Source: Nemertoderma westbladi
Lineage: Eukaryota > Animalia > Xenacoelomorpha
Assembly (NCBI GenBank): GCA_032718475.1
Contig: JAUCBJ010006021.1
Span: 1 to 47,150, forward strand
DNA: 47,150 nucleotides
Direction of reading: 5' to 3'
Of this stretch, positions 5,577 through 40,763 are shown in pieces (within the stretch, counting starts at the first letter, position 1; each line of letters begins with the position of its first letter). A program made the position numbers and the translations under genes. The notes beneath the pieces are model-generated. The model was not told the origin of the DNA, made no database searches, and was given only the letters and a program-made list of their open reading frames with translations.

Positions 5577-6832
5577 ACAATGTTTTATTTTACTTTTTTT
5601 TACCAGGAGAAAAAGTAAAATCAATGCAAAATTATGGCTCTATGGTACATTATTATGTGGCAATATTATTGCAGGTTGCTGTGTTGCCGACTTTGCAAAA
5701 GCTGTGCCCAACAAAAAGTTACAATATTCAGATAATATGGGGACAACGTTTTCCCTACCAGTAGGGAAAAAAAGTAAGCCTACTACTTTTTCTCCCGATT
5801 TTAGGGCATATTCAAGCAAAAAAGTAACAATATAAAAATATAAGTCTTTAGGCTCTATACTTCGTTTTATATGCCTACCATCTGATCATACCACCCCACT
5901 GCACCCCTACCCAGTAGCCTTTTTAAGTATAAGCATTTTTAAACTAATACTGAATATGTTTTAAATATTATATTTCACAATCACAACACTCAGACACTAG
6001 GCCTACATCAGTTTATTTTTTTACATTTGCAATACAGTAACAAACTAACAACTACTGAACTAGGCCAACTATGACTTCTGTCTGTATCTGACTATGCTGC
6101 TATGAAATTCAAATTTGGGGTAAAACTCAAATTTAGAGAATTAACCTAACCTTGTATTAAATTTGAGGTAATTCCAAAATTGGGTCTATAATTTGAAATT
6201 TGAGGTATTCTCAAATTTGATGATCTCCCTGACTGTATGGAGCCGAACCGAACCGAACCGAAGCAGGGCCAACTTCGGGCCGAACCGAACCGAATCTGAA
6301 CCGAAGTTCTGAAATTTAGCAAGTTATGGTCATAAATTCGTATTTACGTCACTATACTGGCTGACTGGCAGTGGCAGACTGGTACCTAATTGGTCTGTGG
6401 ACTTAGCGAGAAAGCTATGATTAATTAAAAAAATAAGTACTACAAAATAAAATGGCAATATTTACATTACTGTACATTACTAACCTAAACTACTGTATAC
6501 TTACTTTATGCATGCACTTACTGTATATGCAGTATGCACCACATTTTCACCCGTAGTAAGCCGTACAGTAGTAACATCAAATTTAAAAAACCTCACTAAA
6601 AGTACAGGTAGTCTTTCCGTCTTTGTAATACTATTTATATGAGATAGTAGGTATATTTGGTATTATGTATCAAAGTTATGATTAATTAAAAATTAGGTAC
6701 TACAAAGTAAAATTGCAAAATTTAGCCTAACCTAAACTACTATATAATTAAGCTAATTTTGAAACTACCCAAGTAACCTGTAAACAATTACAAAAATAAT
6801 GCCATTTAAATGGAAGTTCAGTCCAAAATTAA

Positions 6833-8781
6833 GGGTGTAAACGTTAAGCAGACAGTGGTGCAGATTGCAGAAACCTGGTGCGGCCAGTGGTGCAGACACT
6901 GGTGCAGACAGTGGTGCAGCGTGCAGACAGTGGTGCAGCGTGCAGACAGTGGTGCAGACACCTGGTGCGGACAGTGGTGCAGACAGTGGTGCAGACAGTG
7001 GTGCAGACAGTGGTGCAGACAGTGGTGCAGACAGTGGTGCAGACCCTTGTGCAGACCCTTGTGCAGACAGTGGTGCAGACATTGGTGCAGACAGACGTGC
7101 CGACACTGGTGCAGACAGTGGTTCAGACACTTGTGCAGACAGTGGTGCAGACACCTGGTGAAAATACTGAAATACCAGAGTACCACAAAACACAATACCA
7201 CCAGGCACTATTATATTATATTTTATCATAGACTTTATTATCTACAAATATGCGAGTAACTACTGAAAGGTTCTACATGAAGTAGGGAGGACGTATGTAG
7301 TACAAGCTGACAAGTCGAGGTGCGTGCGGGTGAATGTGCCCTGATTACAAATAATTATAAGAGGTGTGTACGAAAGTAATTAAGTGCAGACTGCACCAGG
7401 TGCCTGCACCACTGTCTGCTCCACTGCCTACACCAGTGTCTGCACCACTGTCTGCCCCAGTGTCTGCACCCCTGTCTGCACCAGTGTCTGCACCACTATC
7501 TGCACCACTGTCTGCACCACCGTCTGCACCACTGTCTGCACCACTGACTGCACCACTGTCTGCACCAGTGTCTGACCACTGTCTGCACCCAGGTTGGAAT
7601 TTATGTAGAGTTTGCTCAACATGTGTGGCGCGGATTAAGGATCCTGGCGCGTAGTGACAGGGGCGTGTGGCGCGGATTAAGGATCTTGGCGCGTAGTGAC
7701 AGGGGCGTGTGGCGCGCATTGAGGATCCTGGCGGTCCTGGCGCGAATATGGATGTAGGGTGTAGGGTTAGGTTGGGACAGTAGGAGGTAGCGTAGCAGTG
7801 CACTAGCAACACATCCCACTCTACGGCTCTATCTGTCTATTTGAAATTATTCCATAGGTTTAAAAAGATTGAAAAATGTCCGCTCGCTTCGCTCGCGTTT
7901 ATACTGTAAATCTACTCTTAGTACTGTCTGGCTGTGGACAAATGGAAACGGACAGATTGCGCATGACCATTAAAAACATGACTTATTGTTTCAAAAGTTT
8001 TTCAATTGTCAGATTCTTCAAACCAATAAAACCATGAAAGCCTGCATGATTCAGCAGAATTTCCGTGCTCGCTACGCTCGCAATTTACCGGTAATGACAT
8101 CTGCATTTCTGCATTTGAAAACAGTCGGATTGCCTACTTTAAATGCTGAAATGTTAAAATTTTCGTGCTCGCTACGCTCGCATCTTCATCACATCTGCAT
8201 TTAAAAACAGTCAGTTGACGTTGACCTACTACTACTACTACTACTACAACTACAGCACTATCTGACTATTACTGTCAGACTGTATTTATGTTAACATAAT
8301 TGGAAAATTTCCTTGCTCGCTACGCTCGCATTTTAATGTTAACATACTGCAGTACTGTAGGGCTACAGAATTCAGGAATTATAAACTGATAAATTATTAC
8401 AATTAAGCAATTACTGCAAAATTTCATAGTCAATTGTTGGCTTGGCGCGCATTAGATATCATGGCTGGCGCGATTTTCGTTTAACCAGAACGCGTGTGGC
8501 GCGCTTTTTGTCAGTATTCCATATAGGGTCTGCACCAGTGTCTGCAACACTGTCTGCACCAGTGTCTGCAACACTGTCTGCACCAGTGTCTGCAGCACTG
8601 TCTGCACCAGGTGTCTGCACCAGTGTCTGCACCACTCTGCACTACTGTCTGCACCAGTGCGTGCATCACTGTCTGCACCAGGTGTCTGCACCACTGTCTG
8701 CATCTCTGTCTGCACCACTGTCTGCATCTCAGTCTGCACCACTGTCTGCTCTGCACCAGTGTCTGCTTAACGTTTACACTC
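6833..8781. mobile_element. Foldback/MULE-like element whose TIR arms are 12-bp minisatellites (GTGGTGCAGACA)n
   Basis: Termini G(G/A)GTGTAAACGTTAAGCAGAC inverted. Flanks CAAAATTAA / CAAAACTAA (9-bp TSD, 1 mismatch). Left arm 6850-7160; inverted right arm 7390-7588 plus 8528-8766. Confidence 0.8.
7589..8527. mobile_element. hAT-like MITE inserted in the minisatellite arm
   Basis: Left end CCAGGTTGGAAT (as in 3169-4069); imperfect right end ATTCCATATAGG. GTCTGCAC on both sides (ambiguous within a repeat). Internal GCTCGCTACGCTCGC and TGGCGCG repeats. Confidence 0.6.
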
Positions 8782-9821
8782 CAAAACTAATTAGTACAAC
8801 CTGACAACGATGGACAGATTGATTAGTCTTACTGTCTTCTGGTCTTAGCTCAATCAGTCAATGTAATATTTGGAATATTTAGCAAAGTTTGCTCCGGGCT
8901 TCTGCAGTATCAATTGCAGAAGCCGAACCGAACCGAAATTGCCAAACTTCGGCCCGAACCGAACCGAAGCCGAAGCTTCTGTTGAGCCCTAGTTACAAGA
9001 TTATGCAGGTTACTTTTATTTAAAGGCTGAAAGGAGCAGGTTATAGAGGCGTGTTGGGGGAACCAAAACAATAAACGAAAGTTAACACATGTTACAAGAT
9101 TGCAGGTCACTTAATTGTGTCTTGGGTCTTTGTTTTGTACTCACCAACACCAAACTGTTTCTTCCTGTAAATAAACGAAGCATTTCATCGGTTAACTCCT
9201 GAAATCAAAACACAACTGAAATAAATGTATGGTACATTCGAGCTTAGTAATTTGTAGATCGAATGTAACATAGTTATAGGATCCAATGTAACATAATTGA
9301 GGTTACGTTCGATTCGTAAAAACTATGTTACATTCGATCCTGATTACGTTCGGTCTGTCACCCGCTAGGGCAGTACTGCAGTATGCAGTAGGGCAGTACT
9401 GCAGTAGGGCAGTACTGCAGTATGCAGTAGGGCAGTACGTCAGTATGGCCTACTGCTTTAATGTTGACTACTAAACAAACACGTCAGTTCAGCAGGTTCT
9501 GTTCAGCCCTGCATTTCAATTTGCGACAACGACAGGTGCACGGACAGACGGATCCGGCGCTATGTGCATGTGCAACGCCAGGCAGGCACCAGGCAATAAA
9601 GTGCTGTGTGTGCCGGGCTATGGCGTCTCAAAATTATCAAAATCATAACAATTACTTGTAAGTAATTGTTATGATTTTGATAATAATTATTATAGTTACT
9701 TTGAAATAATATAATACCAGTGTAGTGTAAATATGTATAACACTCAGGAAAATATTTAAATCACTTATGAAAATATTTAAATCACTCATGAAATATTTAA
9801 AAGATGTCGAATTATTATCAG

Positions 9822-13390: not shown

Positions 13391-16300
13391 ATGTCTGACA
13401 CAAAACAAACACTGTCAGATAGTCTCTTAGAAAGTGCTAGAATGAGTGTTAGACAGGGTCTTAAAAAGATCGGGGACTCAGCTAAGAGTATAGAACGTCT
13501 GAGACCAAAGTCCAAGTCCCCTCCTACTGTAAGCAAGGTCATCCCTGCAGTAGTAGTGTCAGACCCTAGGCTAGTAATGATTCGATTAATGGTTCATTAC
13601 TGTAAGAATTGCTCGAGACTGGCTGGCTGACTGACTGACTGACTAATCTCTAGCCAAAACCACTCTAACGATTTTGATGAAATTTTCACAGCGGCTAGAT
13701 ACCGCGATTCTAAGGTCCCTGATATGTTCCGCTATTTCGTCCATGAGCCGTGGGCTCGAAAAATAGACATAAACGAAAAAACGCCATAGGCGCAATGGTA
13801 AAATAACACCAATGACAGCTGGTGTCCTCATGAAAAATGGCTTATGTAATGCATTTCTACACAAGGCTTAGTAATAAATCGATGAGGTTGCCAAGATTAT
13901 TATACTCAGTACACCTATACTGTTTGTATAGGCCACCACTCTCTGTCAAAGCAAACATTATTAACTGGTTGGTTTAGTTTGAAATCTAATATCGCCTCAG
14001 CTGAATTACTCTTCCCAATGCAATCTATGGGAATATCTCACTCTGCTAATGTAAGCTGAATGACTGTTACGTACACAGTGAGTTGGCTACGTTAATGCCA
14101 ACATTATTGCAAAATGTTTTATTGTTGGATTACTCTCTGTCAGTCACCCCTTCAGAACATTGTATAGGGAATTTACTTTAGTTTACTCTACTGTGCCATT
14201 CAGCTGAATGGATTTGAGCGATTGCCAAGTTACAGAGTTGGATCATTCTCTGACCATAGGCAAAGACATCAAATCTTTTTAAAAATATACTTTTTCCATG
14301 TTTTTTTTTCTGACCAAAAATTTCAAAAAAAATTTTTTCGTAGCCAGTACTGCCAATCGATTCGCCATCAAAAATAACGCAAAAAATTTTTTTTGCAAAA
14401 TTTTAAATTACTGTAAATTTTTGGCGACTGGGGGGGGGGGTCAATTTTTTTCGATCCGCTATAACTCCGGAACGCTTTGTCCAAATTCGATGGGGTTTTC
14501 ATTTTTCAACTTAATTCGATGTTTAAGGCTGGAGGAACACCAGATTGATTGGGCGAGAAGAAAGCGATCGACCAAGGATAGTTATGCGGGATATACACGG
14601 GAAGAACTGAAGTCTATTGTCGAGTCGCAATGGAACTTCCCCAGACCCGGACTCCCGTTTGACTTATCGGAAGCTGCCTGGGAAGACATACACAGGATGG
14701 GAGTGACAAAAGAAACCAGCGATCCAGCTGTGTGGAAGAGGTCAGCAGCCGGATACGTACAGGGATTCTTCTGCTCTATGGAGCGATTAGAGGAACAATT
14801 ATTTCGACAACCACAAGGACCTCAAGAGCAGGGAGAGCTGCTTTATCAAGTTAGAGAAAGAATTCTAAGAATCAGACTAATCTTATCTGCCTTTGAGGAG
14901 GCTTCGAAAAGAAAACAAGACACGTCGTTGCAAGTTGCCGTAAAGACTTGGTTTCAGCGGGTGAGTCTCCAAGTTCAAAGAACTGCCCCGTGGAAATCTC
15001 AGTTGGACGAGCGCTCAACCCATAGAGAATCAACAGACGCTACCTTTTCCCAAGTGGAAAGCGAAGCGACAGCAGAGAAACCGCATAAGAGGGATGCTAT
15101 TGACATCTATCTGTCAGACTATCAACGTTTTGTAGGTGATGAAGAGTTGAGGAGAAGGCTGGAGGGACTTAGCCCTAATAGTGAAGGAGCCAAGCTTGTG
15201 TTGGACGCAATCGATGCGGATATGAGAGCTGCGAACCAAGCTAAATTTGATGAACGCCTCCGCATCGCTAGAGTCCAAGAAGAACAAGTAAAGAAAAAAC
15301 GTATAGAAGACAGAAAGATAGCAGCAGCGGCAGCAGCAGAGGCAGAAGCAGAAAGAAAAGCAGCAGAATTAGATAGAAAAGCGGCAGAGGCAGCGGCAGA
15401 GGCAAAAGCGGCAGCGGCAGAGGCAAAAGCGGCAGCTGCAGCAGTAGAAGCGGAAAGAAAAGAGGCAGCGGCAGAGGCAAAAGCGGCAGCGGCAGAGGCA
15501 AAAGCGGCAGCTGCAGCAGTAGAAGCGGAAAGAAAAGTGGCAGCGACAGAGGTAAAAGCGGCAGCGGCAGAATCAGAAAGAAAAGCAGCAGAAGCGGAAA
15601 GAAAGCGAGCAGTGGCAGAAGCAGAACGAAGAGCATCTGAAGAGACCACCCAACTAGAGTTGGAAAATATTCACGAGAATCAAGACTGCATAAATAAACA
15701 GTTCATAGCTAGTCAAATGCAGATGATGAGTCGATCTACTCCCAAAAGACAGGGATATACATCATCTGAGGAAGGCGATACCACCGATACTGAAGGTGGA
15801 GGAAATAGATCTCGTCTCAGCAGACGTAGAAGAATGTCCCACCGTCAGAAATTGCCTGATTTGCCCCCAGCTGTTCGAAAACAACTAGCTAGCACAGACT
15901 TAGGTAGTACAGAACCCCTAGACCAAATTATTAAAATAGACAGACTCCCTACTATAGTAGATGAGCCTGAAATAATTAGGCCTGTTCTCGAAGCCACCCC
16001 TGCGGTGATAGAGACACCTGTACTCCCCGAACCTACCTCCAAATTCCCTTTGCATAGCACTAAGCTACCTGTGCCCAGCAGAACAGCCCATGAGACAGTT
16101 TATGTCCTGGACTCCGAGCGAAATATTAATGATTTGTCGCCCGTTGTCCCTCGTCCGCCCGCTACAACGTTGGCGGCTCCCGCTTCGGCGGTCGAGTGGG
16201 TGGATGAGAGACGGCGGGGGATGGATCTCCTGCTCGGGCAGATGCAGGATACTGTTAAGCAGTTCAAGGGCACAGTAAGGGAAAGTAGGTTAGAGTTGCA

Positions 16301-19226
16301 AGAAGTGCAGCAAAGTATCGCGTTAGAACGCGATAAATTAGTAAATACACAAAAGGGTATACCACCACCCCCTGTAACAATGTGTCAACCTGTTAGGTCT
16401 GAAGTATTTCATGCGCAAGGTGTGGAGCCTACACGCATCTATACTGCTAGCGAAGTGGAAACTCCTATAGTAAACCCTATTAAGGGTAATTATAAACCTG
16501 TTGACAATGATATTCCATATAGACTTGATAATAATCCGAGAAATTTATATACCGATAACTCGATATTAAATAACACGATGGCCCAAGAAAGTTTTACGCG
16601 TCAAATGGCTAGAACCGAAGCCCGTCAAGCGGTAAAGGTGGGAGAGATCGTCAAGTTCAATGGAGATGAGATGAAATGGTTACCTTTTAATGAATATTAC
16701 AAAGATAACGTACAGAACTCTGTGCTATCTAACGGAGAGAAACTTAGATTCCTTATCGAGTGCTTGGAAGGATCTCCCAAGTTAATGGCGTTAAAGTTTA
16801 TTGGACATCCAGATGGATTAAGACAAGTTTGGGAAACACTGAACATCAGGTATGGTAATAGGACTAACATAGCTAGGTATTTATATGCGAAATTAATGGC
16901 GCCCCGAAAGTTTCTTAGCAGTGGGATTATAGAGTTTTCCGACGAGATTCAGGAGATCTGTAGACAACTAGATTGGTTAGGTAAGTCTCATGAATACCAG
17001 AATTCTATGGTTGTAGGAGCCTTAGCATCTAATTTGCCCAAGGGCGGAGTAGGTACACGCTGGGACAAGACAGTGTTATATATGATGGAACAACAACGAA
17101 GAGATCCTACCATGGCTGATCTCATGTCATTCTTAGATGGAGAGGTAAAATTACAGCTCCTAAAGCAGTCCAGAGAGAAGACACCGGAAAATAAGGTAAG
17201 TGAGAAACCCGTTTCTAGGAGAAAGGTAATACCAGTGTGTTATACAGACGACGGCGAAAGCCAGGCTTCTCAAGACGAAGACAGCGGGAAAGACACTGAA
17301 AGATCTTACTATGACAACAAAGCGCCTAAAGACGTAAGTAAATTCAAGTCTCGAACCAATGACAGGAGAGAACAGGTAAGAAAAACTCCTCCTACGTCTC
17401 CTAAGAGAATTCATGTAAGAAAGCCCGAGGAAAGAACGAGTGTGCACAACGTTACCCAAAGTAAGGTAAGTAACATCAAACCAAAATGTGTGCTGTGCGA
17501 CGGGCCCCACCGTTTAAGTGCGTGTGATGAATTCCTAAAGAAATCATTAAAGGATAGACGGGAAGTCATGTGGGATAAGCGGTTGTGTTATAATTGCCTC
17601 AGACAAGGACACCAACGGCGAACCTGTTACTCCGACGCAAGGTGTGCGAAGTGCGGCGCAAAACATCATATCTTGTTGCACACTGAATTCGATCGAAACA
17701 GCCCGAGTCAGGTAAGTGAGTCCGAACTACATGTCCAATTCAGTGATGTGAACGACACTGACCAAAGTTCTGAGATGGAAGGATTCTATACGGACGAATT
17801 CTCCGACGAAAACGAATCCTGTTACCTGATAAATACCGCAGTGTATCGAGCACTTACGTATGAAAAGGACACCGACAGCGAGCTCCCCCTAACTACTTCT
17901 GACCGACAACCATCTTGGAAAGCACCAACTTCCAATGTAGGAATCCGAGAATTTCCAGTAGTACAGTTAAGGGTCCACGGACTTAAAAGGAGTTATACAG
18001 TGAACGCCCTCCTTGACTCCGGTAGCACAGGAACATTCATCGACAAAGAACTAGCCGAAGACATCTTTGCTGGACAACCCAAGTTCCGAACTAAGTTAAA
18101 CATGTCAGGAATTATGCAGGTTTGGAAATCTACAGTAATAACGGATTATTATGTAGGTGCGTTGTCCACCCCCCAGGATGAACTAGGAGAACACAGCATA
18201 AGGTCAGTAAAAATGGTGGCGATAAAGAACTTCGCTACCAGCCAAGTAGAACCTTATAACTGGGATGAGGACGATTCCACCCAGCAGCTTAATATACCTA
18301 GATTCAACACAGACTACCCTGGAGTGCAAATACTCATCGGCCAAAATGCGCATGAGGCGCTTGAGACATTGGAGAAACGGCCTGCTCAACCGCAACCACT
18401 ACAAGCCTATGCGGGAAGAACTAGAGTAGGTTGGTACCTTACTGGCCCTTCCCGTAGAACTCTCATAGAAAGGTTACCAAAAGAACGGGTATACCAAGTA
18501 AGTGAATGGGAAGCGGAGAGCAGTGAGGTAGACGACCCAACTGAGGGAACACCATACTCCTCAGATAATGACGATATTAACTCCAATGTAGATCAATGGA
18601 GACATTGCCCCGAGACGATTAATCTAGCCGACATCGCTTCCAGAGGAGCAACTCCTCAAGAACTGACAGATACTCCAGACTGGTTAGGTGGACCCGACTT
18701 CCTAAGTAAAGAAGATGAATGGCCTCCCCATCTTACCACGGCTGAGATTAGACAAGCCAAGGGAGCGGAGAAAGTCAAACCTAAAACCCGGACGAGTAAA
18801 TCAAGGTTATTTAAACCCGTGATAGATCTGTCTGTATTACACATTGCCAGGGACGACGCTGTGGATCTAAACTCCCCCACCGCGAACCGATCTGTTGTGG
18901 AGATCAGAGAGAGAGACTGGAGATCTGGAACACCAGACGTCTCGCCGGGACTCTCACCTCTCCTGCCGGGAGCGATGGACCACTATAGATCCTGGAATCG
19001 GCTTTGTAAGGCCGTCGTGTATTTGAAGCGATGTTTCTATCGTCACTATTCCAGGACGAAGAGGAAACCTGGAATTGTCTTCGAGACACAGCAGCTCAAT
19101 CGCCCAGTTGGTCGTTTATGTTTACTGGAAAGAGACCGAGAACTGTCCGGAAACTATGGAAGGCAAGATACTCTTCCCACGACCACCTCCCTAATCCAAC
19201 AAACATCTAGGGACTCCCCAACGTAA
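13391..19226 (+). CDS. gag: BEL/Pao Gag-protease-(RNase H C-tail) polyprotein, about 1625 aa after removing the 13573-14530 insertion; interrupted in this copy
   Basis: KFNGDEMKW..F..EKLRFL..CLEG..W..L..RYG (BEL Gag). CVLCDGPH..C, CYNCLRQGH..C and CAKCGAKHHILLH knuckles. ALLDSGS..ILIG..RTRVGW.LTGP protease. WRHCP..NLADIASRG..WLGGPDFL..EWP. The N-terminus MSDTKQ..DPR joins LEEHQ in frame. Confidence 0.85.
13573..14530 (+). mobile_element. 958-bp insertion in gag, Helentron/DINE-like non-autonomous sequence
   Basis: AGGCT duplicated at 13568-13572 and 14526-14530. (GACT)n microsatellite followed by AACGATTTTGATGAAATTTT. Removal restores the gag frame. Confidence 0.65.
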
Positions 19227-32925: not shown

Positions 32926-34475
32926 TTATATATCCTCACATTTTCTTTGCTTTAAACCCGTTCTAGTCCATGTACTGTATGGACCATTGTACTAGACCAT
33001 AAGTAGGGGCCTATAGAGTTGTGTTAATAAGTACCCTATAGTGTACCAACAGAATTGGTATTAAAAATTGTTAAATGATTTAGACTCATTTCCGTTGCCC
33101 TGGAAACTAAATTGGTAATATGTAGTAGCGCATATATTAGTCAGGCCATAGTCATTTAGACTAAAGTTTGTTTTCACAAAATTTGGGGAAAATCTCACCA
33201 ATAATTACGTTGTTGCTACTGTATGTAAAAATCCCTGTTGCTAAGGAAAGAAGCATGGCATTGAAAGTGAACCGCATATTTTTTTTATAGATTTATTTGT
33301 TAATTCTAGCAAGATAATGTAGAATAAGAAAATTTGTGTGATGAATTGCGAATTAGTTTTTTGTTATCACCTATAATACAGTATTTCGCTAGATTGACTG
33401 GACTATTACACTGTAAACTATCTGTAAAGTTTAATCTGTAAACTTTCAGGTTTCCGGAATGCAACAGGTATCACTTTGCGGTATGCTATATGGGACAGAA
33501 CGCTGCAAAGTAATCACTAACTTATTAACAATAAACTTCTAGAACAAGTCACTCTATTTTGTCTTCTACGTTGTTAGAGTAGTAACTGGAATTAATTGCA
33601 TAAAAGGACATGAATTACATTAAGTGGTTGGCGACGTCTGTTTGTCATCTTAAATTTTGACTGACAAACTGGTAGATGGAAATACCGCGTTACTCGAGAA
33701 CTAAAATGAGATCTCTCCAACCGTTATGGTCATTAAATTCTGTATCAGATTAAATTAAAAAACAAAAAGTTGAAAAGGTTCAAATCGACGCAAATAACAG
33801 CACAAAAAACTAGAAAAAAATATAACTGTATAATCTGTGATATTTAATGTTTTCGTTGGAATAACGTGCCACTCTAACTTTCTATTCTTATTTGATAATT
33901 ACAAGATAATTATTAATTCGCCTAGCTTGGATTTGCGTAAAGTCCCCTTTAAGTTTACGCTGCCGCTCCTACAGAACAACCTGGCAGATTAGAAATTCTA
34001 TGTTTAATCCCCAATGCCGCGGCTGCTCTGTTATTAAGTAATGCTATCCATTCATTGATTATAAATATTCTAATTAAATTAATATCAATTCGTCCTATCA
34101 CACATTGAAATGTATCTATCTGATTGTTTCCTATTTCAGTTAGAAAGTCATTCTTTGTCTCCCCATAAATTAAATGAAAAACTAAAATAATTCGTCAATA
34201 GTCAATAAACTGTTTATTTTACGATCTATTAAGCATCCCAATTTACATGTAGCTACAATTTGAAAAATAATGTGACAGGAATATTTTTACTATTAAGGAA
34301 ATATTGCACCAAAATACTAATAATGAACTACTTGAAAAAACTACTGCAGAACCAAAATTCTAACATATTTAAATAAACAAAATTATAGACACAAGATTTA
34401 TGAAATATTATTTATTATAAATTAATTATATTATCTACTAGACTATCTGTAAAGTCTCTGCATTATTTAAGAGTT

Positions 34476-34796
34476 TTAGCAGCATTCGTGTATTTCTTCA
34501 TCGTCGCATCCTTCGTTTATACATTCTTCGGAGAGTGTGGACGCCCCACCACAACCTTCCGCTACTTCCTCTGTGTTGCATCCCTCGTGGCAGCATTCCT
34601 CCGAGAGAGATCTACGGCTCCGGCGTTTAAGGAAGGAGTCGGAATCGTTGCCGTCCTGGGTTTCCGCCGATCGCCTTCTCCTATTGCTGCAACATAAACC
34701 GCGACTGTGGTGATACAAGTCGTCTCTCCCGTAATGTTTACTGAGGCAAACTTCAACCAAAATACAAAACAAAACTACACACATTAAAGTTTTCAT
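34476..34796 (-). CDS. Insulin-like prepropeptide (106 aa) with two tandem A-chains
   Basis: Hydrophobic signal peptide (aa 1-19). B-like segment ending LCC. RRRR and KRRSRR convertase sites around a short C-peptide. A1 SLSEECCHEGCNTEEVAEGC (canonical CC-x3-C-x8-C); A2 TLSEECINEGCDDEEIHECC. Confidence 0.88.
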   Translation of the reverse strand: MKTLMCVVLFCILVEVCLSKHYGRDDLYHHSRGLCCSNRRRRSAETQDGNDSDSFLKRRSRRSLSEECCHEGCNTEEVAEGCGGASTLSEECINEGCDDEEIHECC

Positions 34797-34887
34797 AGTT
34801 CTGTAGTAGATTGTCAGTTAGTAGCAGAATTAGTGAATTTTGAGATGAATAATTAATGATATTCTGCAGAAAACAAATAACAGAGGC

Positions 34888-34926
34888 TAATGAGATAACG
34901 GCTGGCAAAAAGCAAACCAATTTATA
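34888..34926 (-). promoter_or_regulatory. Candidate core promoter of the insulin-like gene (TATA + Inr)
   Basis: Minus-strand TATAAA at 34926-34921 and TCATTA at 34893-34888. TACTAAC..CTACAG just before the ATG may be a 5'UTR splice acceptor. AATAAA signals downstream at 34416-34411 and 34218-34213. Confidence 0.4.
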
Positions 34927-35887
34927 CAGAGAGATCTGCATTGTGCAAAGGGCACACAGCTGATAGGCCACCCTTAGTTACACTTCTTTACCAATAAATA
35001 TCGGCGGACCGGTTCCTTCAAATGATTGGGCAGCTTTCACTGTTACCTCTTTCAAACGACATCACATTGATTGGTTGTTATTAGAATGTGATAATTAATA
35101 GAGTTTGTTATGTGGAGATGGATTAGATATTGCCTGTAATAATGTCGATGCTCTTGTCCCTGGTGATTTCGAGTGTCAAGTACTATGCAATCAATTAATA
35201 ATTGTGGCTATGGGTTCGAATGGAATTACAAGTAAACTAGTTTAAGTAATATAGTATTAATACAGTACAACATAATAATGCTCAGTTGTTACTTCAGAAA
35301 TAGCCCTTACTCTGTACCTCAGTACCTCACACCCCACAACAATATAATATTATACAGTAATTAGAATCTTACAAAAACGAATTGCGAATGTTCTAAAAAT
35401 ATAATTGATAAATCAAATATTACAGGCCCTAGCTGTTTATAATAATATTGTAATTAACCTCACAGGAGCTCGGTAAATATAATATCACGGGAATAATAGA
35501 AAAGTTATACTTTTTCCAAGTAGGCCTAATAAATAATTATTATCATTTTGTAAGAGATGTTGTTTTCTTTCAAAACCCCACTTTTGGGCCCATGTGAAGA
35601 TTTCCAGACTTTCTGCCGTTATATTTCACAGAAGGGCTGAATCTAACCAAAACAATAAACGAATTAGTATTTGTACAGGTTATAAGACAGAAATAAGCGC
35701 TATAAAACACTTAATAAAGGTAAATTAAAAAAAATAAAAAATCTTCATATATAAAATTCCAATAAAAAGTCGACCGAAAAGTGAAATCTTTGTATTCTTC
35801 ACATGGGCGCACTTTTGAATTAGAGGTTTACATGACAACTTTATAGGAAATTTGAAGTAAGTGAAGCACCAATGTCAAATTACTGCT

Positions 35888-36525
35888 ACTGTGAGGCGAG
35901 CCACGAAGAGGGCGAATCCTTAGTACTGTATATGGGTACCATTTAAGAGTTGTCTGTTTGTCGTCGTCTGCTGTCATCGTCGTCTATTTATAGATCGCTA
36001 ATAACATTCCTTGATGAAATTAAACCAACGTCAAAAATGAGAGAGTCTGTCAGTCGGTACCAGTAGTTTAAGACTTTTGATAAAAGTCGAAATAAGTCGG
36101 CCAATCATTGCTGAAATTAATCCAAACTTGGTACGTATGCAGTCCGTCATCCAATGACTATCGATTGACTGAAACATGCACTACTGTGGGGCGAGCCACG
36201 AAGTGAGCGAAGCTTTAGCATATGGGTGCCATTGGGGAGTTGTCTGTTGTCTGTCGTCGTCGCCTGTCGTCGTCGTCGTCGTAAATTTTAGATCGCTAAT
36301 AACTCGGTTATTCCTTGATGAAATTAAACGAAACTTAGAATGTATGTAGTCCGTCAAAAGTTTAGAAAGAATCTGAAGTTTGGTCAAGAACAAATGAACG
36401 CAACGAGGCACAAGAGGAGGACGAGTATTGTATTGAAGACTTCTGACTAACGGCAGACAACTCGTTAATGGTGCCCCCCATATGCTAAAGGCTTTGTTCA
36501 CTTCGTGCTGCGCGAAGGCCCCACG
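35888..36525 (+). mobile_element. Two more copies of the GCGAGCCACGAAG Helentron/DINE-like family
   Basis: Heads at 35888 and 36183 with (GTC)n microsatellite. The 36183 copy has an inverted copy of its head at 36466-36524. Confidence 0.6.
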
Positions 36526-39689: not shown

Positions 39690-40763
39690 ATGGATTCGCT
39701 TTTGCTACAACCCCAAGACAGTTTCCGAGAAACCACGGTCGGTGTAGTTGGTTGCGATGACAACATCCCGCTATCAGAGGATCTTTTTACCGAGAACTCC
39801 CAACCGACGTCGCGTTTCCGTTGCGACATGTGCGACGCCGCTGGCAAATACACGTGTCCCCGGTGCGGCACCTACAGCTGCAGTCTGCGGTGCTGCGTGT
39901 CCCACAAATCCGTAGCGGGTTGCAGCGGTGTACGGGACGTGGCAGCGTACGTTACCGCTAAAACATTCTCCGACGCGCATCTGGTTCGAGATTACCGGTT
40001 CCTCGAGGACGTTACGCGGCACGTCGAAGCGACTTCGCGCTGGAAACTCCACCGCTGCACCGGAAGTCAACCTCGCCCTGAACACGTGGTACAACTGTGC
40101 AAAGCGGCCTACCGATCTGGCATTAAGTACCAATTAGCTAGCTACGGACTGCAGGTCAGATTCACTAATAAAACTATGTTCGACTTCAGAAGAAGGAAAA
40201 TTCTTTGGCAAATAGATTGGTTTTTCGTTTCAGCGGTAGGTGATCGCTGCCTCGTAAAACGAGATGTTAAAGTCCCGGAAAACGCCGTTATAAAAACTTT
40301 ACTCACTAAATATTTGGATAGAAATTCGTGTGAAGTTGAATTGAAGTACGATTTATCGCGTTACGACGATGAAGGGGGATTAGATTCAGTGGAAGTTTTA
40401 ATGATTGTCGATCATTTACAAACCCCTGATAAACAGTACCACCGACTCGATAAAGAAAAGTCTTTGCAGTTGAATCTGCGCGATAAAGTTGTTAACGAAT
40501 TTCCCAGGATAACTCTTGTGGTTCCTTCCGAGCTGCATAAGTTCCGATTGTTTCGCGAGAATGGATCGAATCCTTACCTCCCTCGCAAGGCGCCGAGTAA
40601 CGCCTGCCGCGGAGTCGGAATAACCGACAATGGAAGAGAGACAGCTAATAATTCGATTGACAAAACCGATCAGGGAATAGGTATTGATAACGAATTGTCT
40701 TCATGCGATGAACCACCAGAAGAACTTCCTATTAAATACAGACGAATTGATGATTCTGTGTGA
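39690..40763 (+). CDS. ZNHIT6: Box C/D snoRNA protein 1 / zinc finger HIT domain-containing protein 6 (357 aa)
   Basis: zf-HIT CDMC..KYTCPRC..YSCSLRC..HK..CSGVRD. DYRFLED, N.T.FD.R.K.I.W.I.W.F and SL..NL..K.V.EFP motifs typical of BCD1. First ATG is at 39690 (the ORF track starts at a GTG). Confidence 0.9.
   Translation: MDSLLLQPQDSFRETTVGVVGCDDNIPLSEDLFTENSQPTSRFRCDMCDAAGKYTCPRCGTYSCSLRCCVSHKSVAGCSGVRDVAAYVTAKTFSDAHLVRDYRFLEDVTRHVEATSRWKLHRCTGSQPRPEHVVQLCKAAYRSGIKYQLASYGLQVRFTNKTMFDFRRRKILWQIDWFFVSAVGDRCLVKRDVKVPENAVIKTLLTKYLDRNSCEVELKYDLSRYDDEGGLDSVEVLMIVDHLQTPDKQYHRLDKEKSLQLNLRDKVVNEFPRITLVVPSELHKFRLFRENGSNPYLPRKAPSNACRGVGITDNGRETANNSIDKTDQGIGIDNELSSCDEPPEELPIKYRRIDDSV

Follow-up and report, generated by a model that had tools for sequence, protein, structure and literature searches.

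The window, a 47,150-nucleotide stretch of DNA, carries on its reverse strand an open reading frame at positions 34796-34476 that encodes a 106-residue protein, P0001. All 106 codons are open, with no internal stop. The predicted precursor begins with a likely signal peptide (residues 1 to 19; positions 34740-34796), assigned only from hydropathy, with 9-residue values of up to 3.4 across the strongly hydrophobic N-terminus; the structure model places a helix there. A degenerate B segment, K20 to N38 (34683-34739), follows and was recognized from its sequence and its alignment to the B segment of a related protein, P0002. It has no B7 cysteine and at its end carries an adjacent pair, C35-C36, read as B19 and B20. 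A predicted convertase site, RRRR (34671-34682), separates it from a 14-residue C-peptide with S-x-x-F-L at its end (34629-34670), and a second predicted convertase site, KRRSRR (34611-34628), leads into two 20-residue A units. The first unit, A1 (34551-34610), carries the full insulin signature CC-x3-C-x8-C, matches Pfam Insulin, and has two ExxxExC motifs. The second, A2 (34479-34538), has Ile in place of the A7 cysteine, an extra cysteine at A19 that gives it a terminal CC, and two ExxxExC motifs. Between them lies a GGAS linker without a basic site (34539-34550), in which Ser replaces Ala in one allele, and the stop codon (34476-34478) follows A2. The insulin-superfamily order of signal peptide, B, C, and A with basic cleavage sites is present, the signal being judged by hydropathy. 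After residue 19 the mature part has 10 cysteines, and the 44 residues of A1 plus A2 contain 12 Glu, 2 Asp, and 8 Cys but no Lys or Arg. Within the whole window, the pattern CC-x3-C-x7-9-C occurred only once in a plausible peptide gene. The first-pass annotation had described the same signal-like start, B segment, cleavage sites, 14-residue C-peptide, and two A units at these coordinates, with no basic site between the units, a canonical A1, an A2 with its second cysteine changed to Ile and a terminal CC gained, and 10 mature cysteines; translation and counting agree on every point.

None of the 8 sequencing runs listed is recorded as RNA; of the six different runs that were aligned, two, X4 and X5, behave as cDNA. 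A TATAAA box (34921-34926) lies about 30 nt upstream of cDNA 5' ends at 34894 and 34896, which together with another at 34946 appear as loose ends in X5; the loose sequence matches a template-switch oligo. The 5' UTR (34797-34896) contains no upstream ATG. In the 3' UTR (34188-34475), AATAAA is located at 34218-34213, and untemplated T-runs in X4 mark poly(A) addition at 34195 and 34188, 18 and 25 nt past AATAAA, where the genome beyond has only 4 to 5 A per 20 nt. A 409-nt contig of X4 (34425-34833) covers the entire coding sequence with 0 differences and spans both A units, indicating that A2 is transcribed. No splice joints were found along the transcript in X5, and an AG-ending acceptor-like site near 34863 was rejected as a splice site, as cDNA contigs cross it unjoined. 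In the DNA runs X2 and X3, the depth over the gene equaled that of nearby unique sequence, and contigs extended into the upstream flank. The P0001 gene is real and expressed, which we hold to be nearly certain, and it is intron-free and transcribed without splicing. The first-pass annotation had proposed confirming the coding sequence from RNA, and the cDNA-like runs supply the transcript ends, the unjoined course, and the full coding sequence. It had also named loss of A2 by splicing, an extra B exon, and lack of expression as outcomes that would count against its reading; the aligned contigs contain none of these.

The gene is surrounded by high-copy repeats. Two short elements with inverted arms, at 35585-35811 and 36197-36507, reach a depth of about 1e5 in the DNA runs, lie 0.7 to 1.6 kb upstream of the gene, and are likely miniature transposons. 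At 6765-8804, a short sequence repeated in tandem forms long arrays that are probably satellite DNA; both strands can be read as CRQW-like or SGAD-like ORFs. At 14298-19226 (forward strand), a single 1,642-residue ORF with a DUF1759 and an aspartyl-protease match belongs to what we take to be a Pao/BEL-type retrotransposon. No Pfam match to reverse transcriptase or integrase was found in this ORF, and the element is therefore likely to be internally deleted yet still in frame. Another intron-free gene, of the BCD1/zf-HIT family, is located at 39690-40763 (forward strand; Pfam E value, 8.5e-27); it is very divergent, and a word-indexed search with its ORF scored 0 of 960 candidates. Among 109 stop-to-stop ORFs, 58 had no informative Pfam match.

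A1 and A2 are identical at 12 of 20 residues, a level reached by 0 of 100,000 shuffles. Their coding sequences have 22 differences in 60 nt, and for 6 of the 12 identical residues the codons are not the same. Because of these nucleotide and codon differences, the two units fit an old tandem duplication. An old, selected duplication was also the first-pass interpretation, and the 12/20 identity, the silent differences at 6 of 12 codons, and the retained Cys/Glu core bear it out. A second allele differs from the first at 14 positions in 926 nt, 4 of them in the coding sequence: 3 synonymous changes and the Ala-to-Ser change in the linker. The resulting pN/pS is 0.08 (P = 0.027 for the silent share), with the three synonymous changes sitting inside 7 bp and possibly a single event. 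The precursor is apparently under selection.

An intron-free gene with a degenerate B chain amid high-copy repeats could instead be a decaying or neutral duplicate, that is, a processed copy of an ordinary insulin-like peptide (ILP) gene whose odd cysteines have no function. The 0 orthologue contigs found in X7 and X8, two other organisms searched at 80% likeness, would suit such an origin, a result that is not proof of absence. However, we consider this explanation highly improbable, as the gene has its own TATA box and defined transcript ends, its frame is open in both alleles, the silent codon differences between the units leave the Cys/Glu core intact, the neighboring BCD1-family ORF is likewise intron-free, and a similar architecture occurs in the two proteins P0002 and L013 described below.

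The relationship of P0001 to insulin was examined with several types of search. Pfam Insulin (PF00049) matched the whole of P0001 with an E value of 0.018 (16.5 bits), the stretch from B to A1 with an E value of 0.0046 (18.4 bits), and A1 alone with an E value of 0.031, and A2 alone had no Pfam match. P0001 falls below the gathering cut-off of this family (23 bits); full-length relatives with a single A chain score 20.9 to 25.7 bits. In an Atlas search, the best ten named matches were all of the insulin clan, with nematode insulin-like clusters at 0.82 to 0.87 among the matches listed, a result that serves as a lead only. In a profile-profile comparison, the four-sequence profile described below matched a profile of single-A acidic ILPs at 98.6% over 33 columns. 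A phmmer search of P0001 against PDB sequences gave 0 matches at an E value of ≤10, and a word-indexed search with P0001 alone scored 0 of 16 candidates. Two AlphaFold models were of low confidence (mean pLDDT, 52 and 51) and had two short helices in each A unit; a fold search with a low-confidence model found 0 of 48,161 chains at a Z score of ≥2, and a predicted complex of residues 20 to 49 with residues 63 to 106 scored 0.03, giving no usable answer. Taken from the sequence comparisons, P0001 is very probably of insulin-family origin and likely derives from the acidic-A-chain class of invertebrate ILPs.

By definition, a peptide of the insulin family has one B chain and one A chain, held by two interchain bonds. 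The two B cysteines, B7 and B19, that give these two bonds to one A chain are not both present in P0001, in which B7 is lost and there are two A units. The A-chain signature of the superfamily, given as CC-x3-C-x8-C in the accessible text of a 2025 review (PMC12702675), is found in A1 and is absent from A2, where the second cysteine is missing. Because P0001 departs from the family in B7, in the single A chain, and in the Pfam cut-off, it is an insulin-derived variant and not a canonical member of the insulin superfamily.

The first-pass annotation held that YG replaces CG in the B segment. Codon 22 is indeed TAC (Tyr), and the first B cysteine is indeed absent. However, in the ungapped insulin register, in which B7 stands 12 residues before the first cysteine of the CC, G23 falls at B7 and L27 at B11; Ser occupies B15, and there is no cysteine 12 residues ahead of the CC. 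P0002 has Tyr at the position matching Y22, and in the accessible part of PMC6188537 Tyr directly precedes the first B cysteine in 9 of 23 Ascoparia peptides (counted by eye). Given the register, P0002, and the Ascoparia peptides, it is more likely that Y22 corresponds to B6 than to a replaced cysteine and that the lost B7 cysteine maps to G23.

A full HMMER search with P0001 gave 5 matches at an E value of ≤0.001: 1 chance match, 1 ordinary acidic ILP (P0005), and 3 proteins with two tandem units. The chance match, P0004, is a bacterial HYR-repeat protein and was rejected as a relative. A four-sequence profile retrieved 11 proteins out of 239 candidates and, in metagenomes, 19 loci from 146 pattern matches. 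Eleven of these loci encode single canonical A chains, and one (L013) encodes a double-A precursor; L015 and L016 encode the same single unit without A7, and the remaining 5 belong to a high-GC family, mostly in bacterial context. P0005 and L017 each have one C-terminal A chain. P0002, an unannotated protein from a marine eukaryote catalogue, aligns to P0001 over 103 residues at 38% and has a B segment without B7, a terminal CC, and then two A units, with 9 mature cysteines. Outside the CC, only 3 of 15 residues of the two B segments are alike (shuffle P = 0.054). L013 (140-880) lies on a poly(A)-ended metagenome contig and encodes a 246-residue precursor with 14 cysteines that is extended at the N-terminus and contains a long C region; it has a B-like segment ending in CC plus two A units and has no Pfam match. 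A CC at the end of B together with two A units is thus not unique to P0001 and recurs in P0002 and L013. The HMMER and profile searches in this way found the other double-A-chain ILPs that the first-pass annotation had suggested looking for. Its description of P0001 as a candidate new ILP architecture holds in that no published doubled A chain was found, but the layout also occurs in these two unannotated sequences. The identity between units is 9 to 13 of 17 residues for nearly all pairs, bacterial units included; the units therefore carry no usable phylogenetic signal. P0001, P0002, and L013 may be independent duplications.

The ILPs L007, L017, L019, and P0005, which we take to be cnidarian-type acidic single-A ILPs, share with P0001 the A-chain core and the C-peptide motif of the acidic class, A-x-x-F-L, of which the S-x-x-F-L of P0001 is a reduced version. 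In L007 and L019, the B chain also contains a CC. In contrast to P0001, the cnidarian-type peptides have one A chain and keep B7. The B chains of the single-A acidic ILPs L007 (1342-1665) and L019 (6-365) end in CC-x3-C, an echo of the A-chain motif with a third cysteine that P0001 does not have, and this pattern suggests an extra disulfide within their B chains.

The closest published sequences that we found are the single-A ILPs of the nemertodermatid Ascoparia sp., whose acidic A chains were described by Thiel et al. (2018; PMC6188537, of which part was accessible, as for the comparisons that follow). Like P0001, these peptides have the order signal-B-C-A, a short C-peptide often with F/Y-L before the basic residues, and acidic A chains of the EECC-x-EGC-x-x-EE type; the A chain of ILP-16 is identical to A1 at 15 of 20 residues by eye. 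The first-pass annotation had likened the acidic A chains to cnidarian-type ILPs, and the core is indeed shared, but the Ascoparia peptides are the closest found. Unlike P0001, the 31 xenacoelomorph ILPs listed in the accessible part of PMC6188537 have one A chain each, the usual first B cysteine, and no B-terminal CC. Internal repetition of chains is also seen in an insulin-family gene of Caenorhabditis elegans, INS-31, according to the accessible portions of bioRxiv 10.1101/336750 and PMC3967928; there the whole B+A pair is present in three repeats, whereas P0001 doubles only A, on one degenerate B. Extra disulfides are also found in ambulacrarian octinsulin and nematode beta-type ILPs. As described in the available text of Veenstra (2021; PMC8286064), octinsulin has eight cysteines, four bonds, and one A chain, and the same holds for the beta-type ILPs; P0001, in contrast, has ten cysteines and two A units and has lost B7. 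A search of the full-text literature, largely open-access and with some supplements outside its scope, found neither a doubled A chain nor an insulin-Gla relationship. A doubled A chain does not appear in the accessible text of PMC12702675, nor does either topic in that of PMC11521371 and PMC9545775.

Comparison of the double-unit proteins with a B chain (P0001, P0002, and L013) bears on how the chains may be bonded. All three have the B19-B20 CC and the A7 cysteine of unit 1. L013 has both B7 and the A7 cysteine of unit 2, whereas P0001 and P0002 have neither. This joint presence or absence of B7 and unit-2 A7 in the three proteins suggests that A2 is the true partner of B and that A1 is an extra unit tied to B20. 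Unit 1 has no A20 cysteine in P0002 and L013, and both proteins keep a late cysteine in or after unit 2. In P0001, C68-C73 and C92-C97 would form within the units, C35-C106 would be the normal insulin bond from B19 to A2, C36-C69 would join B20 to the second cysteine of A1, and C82-C105 would link the units; the B7-A7 bond would have been lost on both sides at once. That exactly this set of bonds forms is a tentative proposal, to which we assign somewhat less than an even chance; it pairs 10 of 10 cysteines in P0001 and 14 of 14 in L013 and leaves 1 of 9 free in P0002, and it is drawn from three sequences that are possibly independent duplications.

The first-pass annotation had made A1 the normal partner (C35-C82), with B20 holding A2 (C36-C106) and C69-C105 replacing the B7 bond, in a ligand that might be bivalent, antagonistic, or toxin-like. 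This wiring also pairs all 10 cysteines; in addition, the insulin signature is complete in A1, and no other unit matches Pfam Insulin by itself. The tail that follows the single A chain of Ascoparia ILP-7 in the accessible part of PMC6188537 resembles, by eye, the linker and the start of A2, and A2 as a later addition fits this resemblance. However, P0002 and L013 have no unit-1 A20 cysteine, so that B19 would be unpairable there, and B7 tracks unit-2 A7 in 3 of 3 proteins. We regard this wiring as unlikely. The five bonds and the anchoring of both A units by the CC of B are retained from the first-pass proposal, and the comparison with P0002 and L013 favors A2 as the partner of B.

Profile searches of the PDB gave an additional likeness. 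At an E value of ≤10, the double-unit profile matched 25 sequences, of which 18 were Gla-domain chains (best E value, 0.008) and 0 were insulins. P0002 alone had 11 matches, all to Gla chains (best E value, 0.059). A control profile of nine single-A ILPs also had 11 matches, 7 to insulin-family sequences and 4 to Gla precursors, and aligned its C-peptide motif with the prothrombin propeptide (E value, 0.44); a mixed profile ranked IGF-II first (E value, 0.012). Judged by the single-A control and the mixed profile, the Gla likeness is, as far as these profiles indicate, a property of the acidic ILP class, strongest in units without A7. The Gla domain, as in the PDB chains of prothrombin, factor X, protein C, and TMG2, resembles the acidic units in the core E-C-x4-C-x-x-E-E, and the profile matches also take in the F-L motif ahead of this core and, in the case of single-A ILPs, the propeptide. 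In contrast to the Gla domain, P0001 has a basic cleavage site where the N-terminal acidic loop of Gla aligns and has no aromatic C-terminal helix. Against a cut-off of 27 bits, Pfam Gla (PF00594) scored 7.3 to 9.6 bits for P0001 and 17 to 20 bits for the best relatives (maximum, 20.1), with all sequences tested below the cut-off. P0001 is not a Gla-domain protein by score.

ExxxExC with a short disulfide loop is typical of vitamin K-dependent proteins. Four of the 7 ExxxExC motifs in all six frames of the window lie in the 44-residue double unit of P0001; the propeptide-like motif is present only in the reduced form S-x-x-F-L. The gamma-carboxylase is conserved across animals, as stated in the accessible part of PMC3141003. 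Gamma-carboxylation of the Glu residues of P0001 is conceivable from these motifs, though doubtful.

Several of the retrieved sequences are animal-type peptides with no visible B chain and with A7 missing in every unit: P0003 (with its near-identical P0007), P0013, and L015 (622-879). The B-less appearance of P0013 and L015 may reflect incomplete sequences. Together with L016 (411-668), these sequences combine a Gla-propeptide-like stretch and no visible B chain with units lacking the A7 cysteine. They gave weak Pfam scores to Insulin, Gla, both, or neither, and are possible intermediates between the two families. An Atlas search with P0003 returned only a Gla-protein cluster, at 0.76, which is under the lead level.

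These observations bear on what the P0001 peptide does. It may have left hormone signaling and now be made in quantity by exocrine or gland cells, as a mucus, adhesive, defensive, or prey-directed peptide with a Gla-like calcium- or membrane-binding unit and a relic B. Transcript abundance would agree with this: the summed contig depth in X5 was about 2e4 to 2.5e5 on the transcript, whereas it was about 20 for one contig in the flank and 0 upstream, and a nearly full P0001 transcript is among the 1,646 contigs that make up run X4. However, contig depth is a poor measure of expression, and the high abundance is only a hint. The 18 Gla chains matched by the double-unit profile with no insulin among them, the concentration of ExxxExC motifs, and the peptides without A7 or a visible B chain (of which P0013 and L015 are perhaps incomplete) point in the same direction, but the likeness is common to ordinary single-A acidic ILPs, the Pfam Gla score of P0001 is far from the cut-off, and the B-C-A layout, both convertase sites, and an even cysteine number are kept. 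A gland product is the leading alternative to a hormone but in our estimation a rather unlikely role.

We prefer to view the locus as an intact insulin-derived gene for a secreted, cleaved, five-disulfide signaling ligand of B plus double A, with a remodeled receptor face and an acidic calcium-binding surface, a model that as a whole we consider evenly balanced between right and wrong. P0001 would likely be secreted and cut at RRRR and KRRSRR, giving a 19-residue B chain and a 44-residue double A chain joined by five disulfides. That B stays bonded to the double A is fairly probable. The doubled unit, rich in Glu and free of Lys and Arg, would have an acidic surface, a likely site of calcium binding, and would bind more if some Glu residues were gamma-carboxylated. 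The peptide would be a candidate signaling ligand with an altered receptor face; insulin-type kinase receptors and relaxin-type G protein-coupled receptors are the candidate receptors, and action through one of them is an even prospect. A precursor with two A units and a concerted loss of B7 and A7, with at least two further examples among unannotated sequences, would show that the insulin scaffold can be rebuilt in a new way; P0001 is also a small peptide suited to direct disulfide and receptor tests.

A broader reading joins the insulin and Gla observations. The acidic insulin A chain and the clotting Gla domain would share an ancestor, and the C-peptide of acidic ILPs would be a gamma-carboxylase propeptide. 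Loss of B7-A7, and then of B, would release the A unit to serve as a Gla module that binds calcium and can be stacked. P0001, with one full A unit, one Gla-like unit, and a shrinking B, would be a living intermediate, flanked by the B-less double-unit peptides of other marine animals and by a myxobacterial tandem-unit family. We judge this reading to be distinctly improbable. If the weak but recurrent Gla likeness did reflect common descent, it would explain where the Gla domain came from, and vitamin K-dependent modification would be expected of many invertebrate ILPs.

The bacterial tandem-unit proteins comprise L001 (74-703), L002 (4680-5393), L003 (2695-3243), L006 (4787-5296), L012 (1956-2993), P0006, P0008 to P0012, and P0017. 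The family is apparently secreted, its loci have a GC content of 0.57 to 0.72, and a Myxococcaceae bacterium is the named source of one cluster member. No carboxylase gene was found beside the tandem-unit genes in the 39 ORFs scanned of 83. The proteins open with a tandem pair of Y-x-EEC-x-x-EGC-x-x-EE units at a spacing of 21 residues, which have the Glu/Cys core common to animal acidic A chains and weak Pfam Gla matches (best E value, 0.00075). Either transfer or convergence could account for the likeness between the bacterial and animal units.
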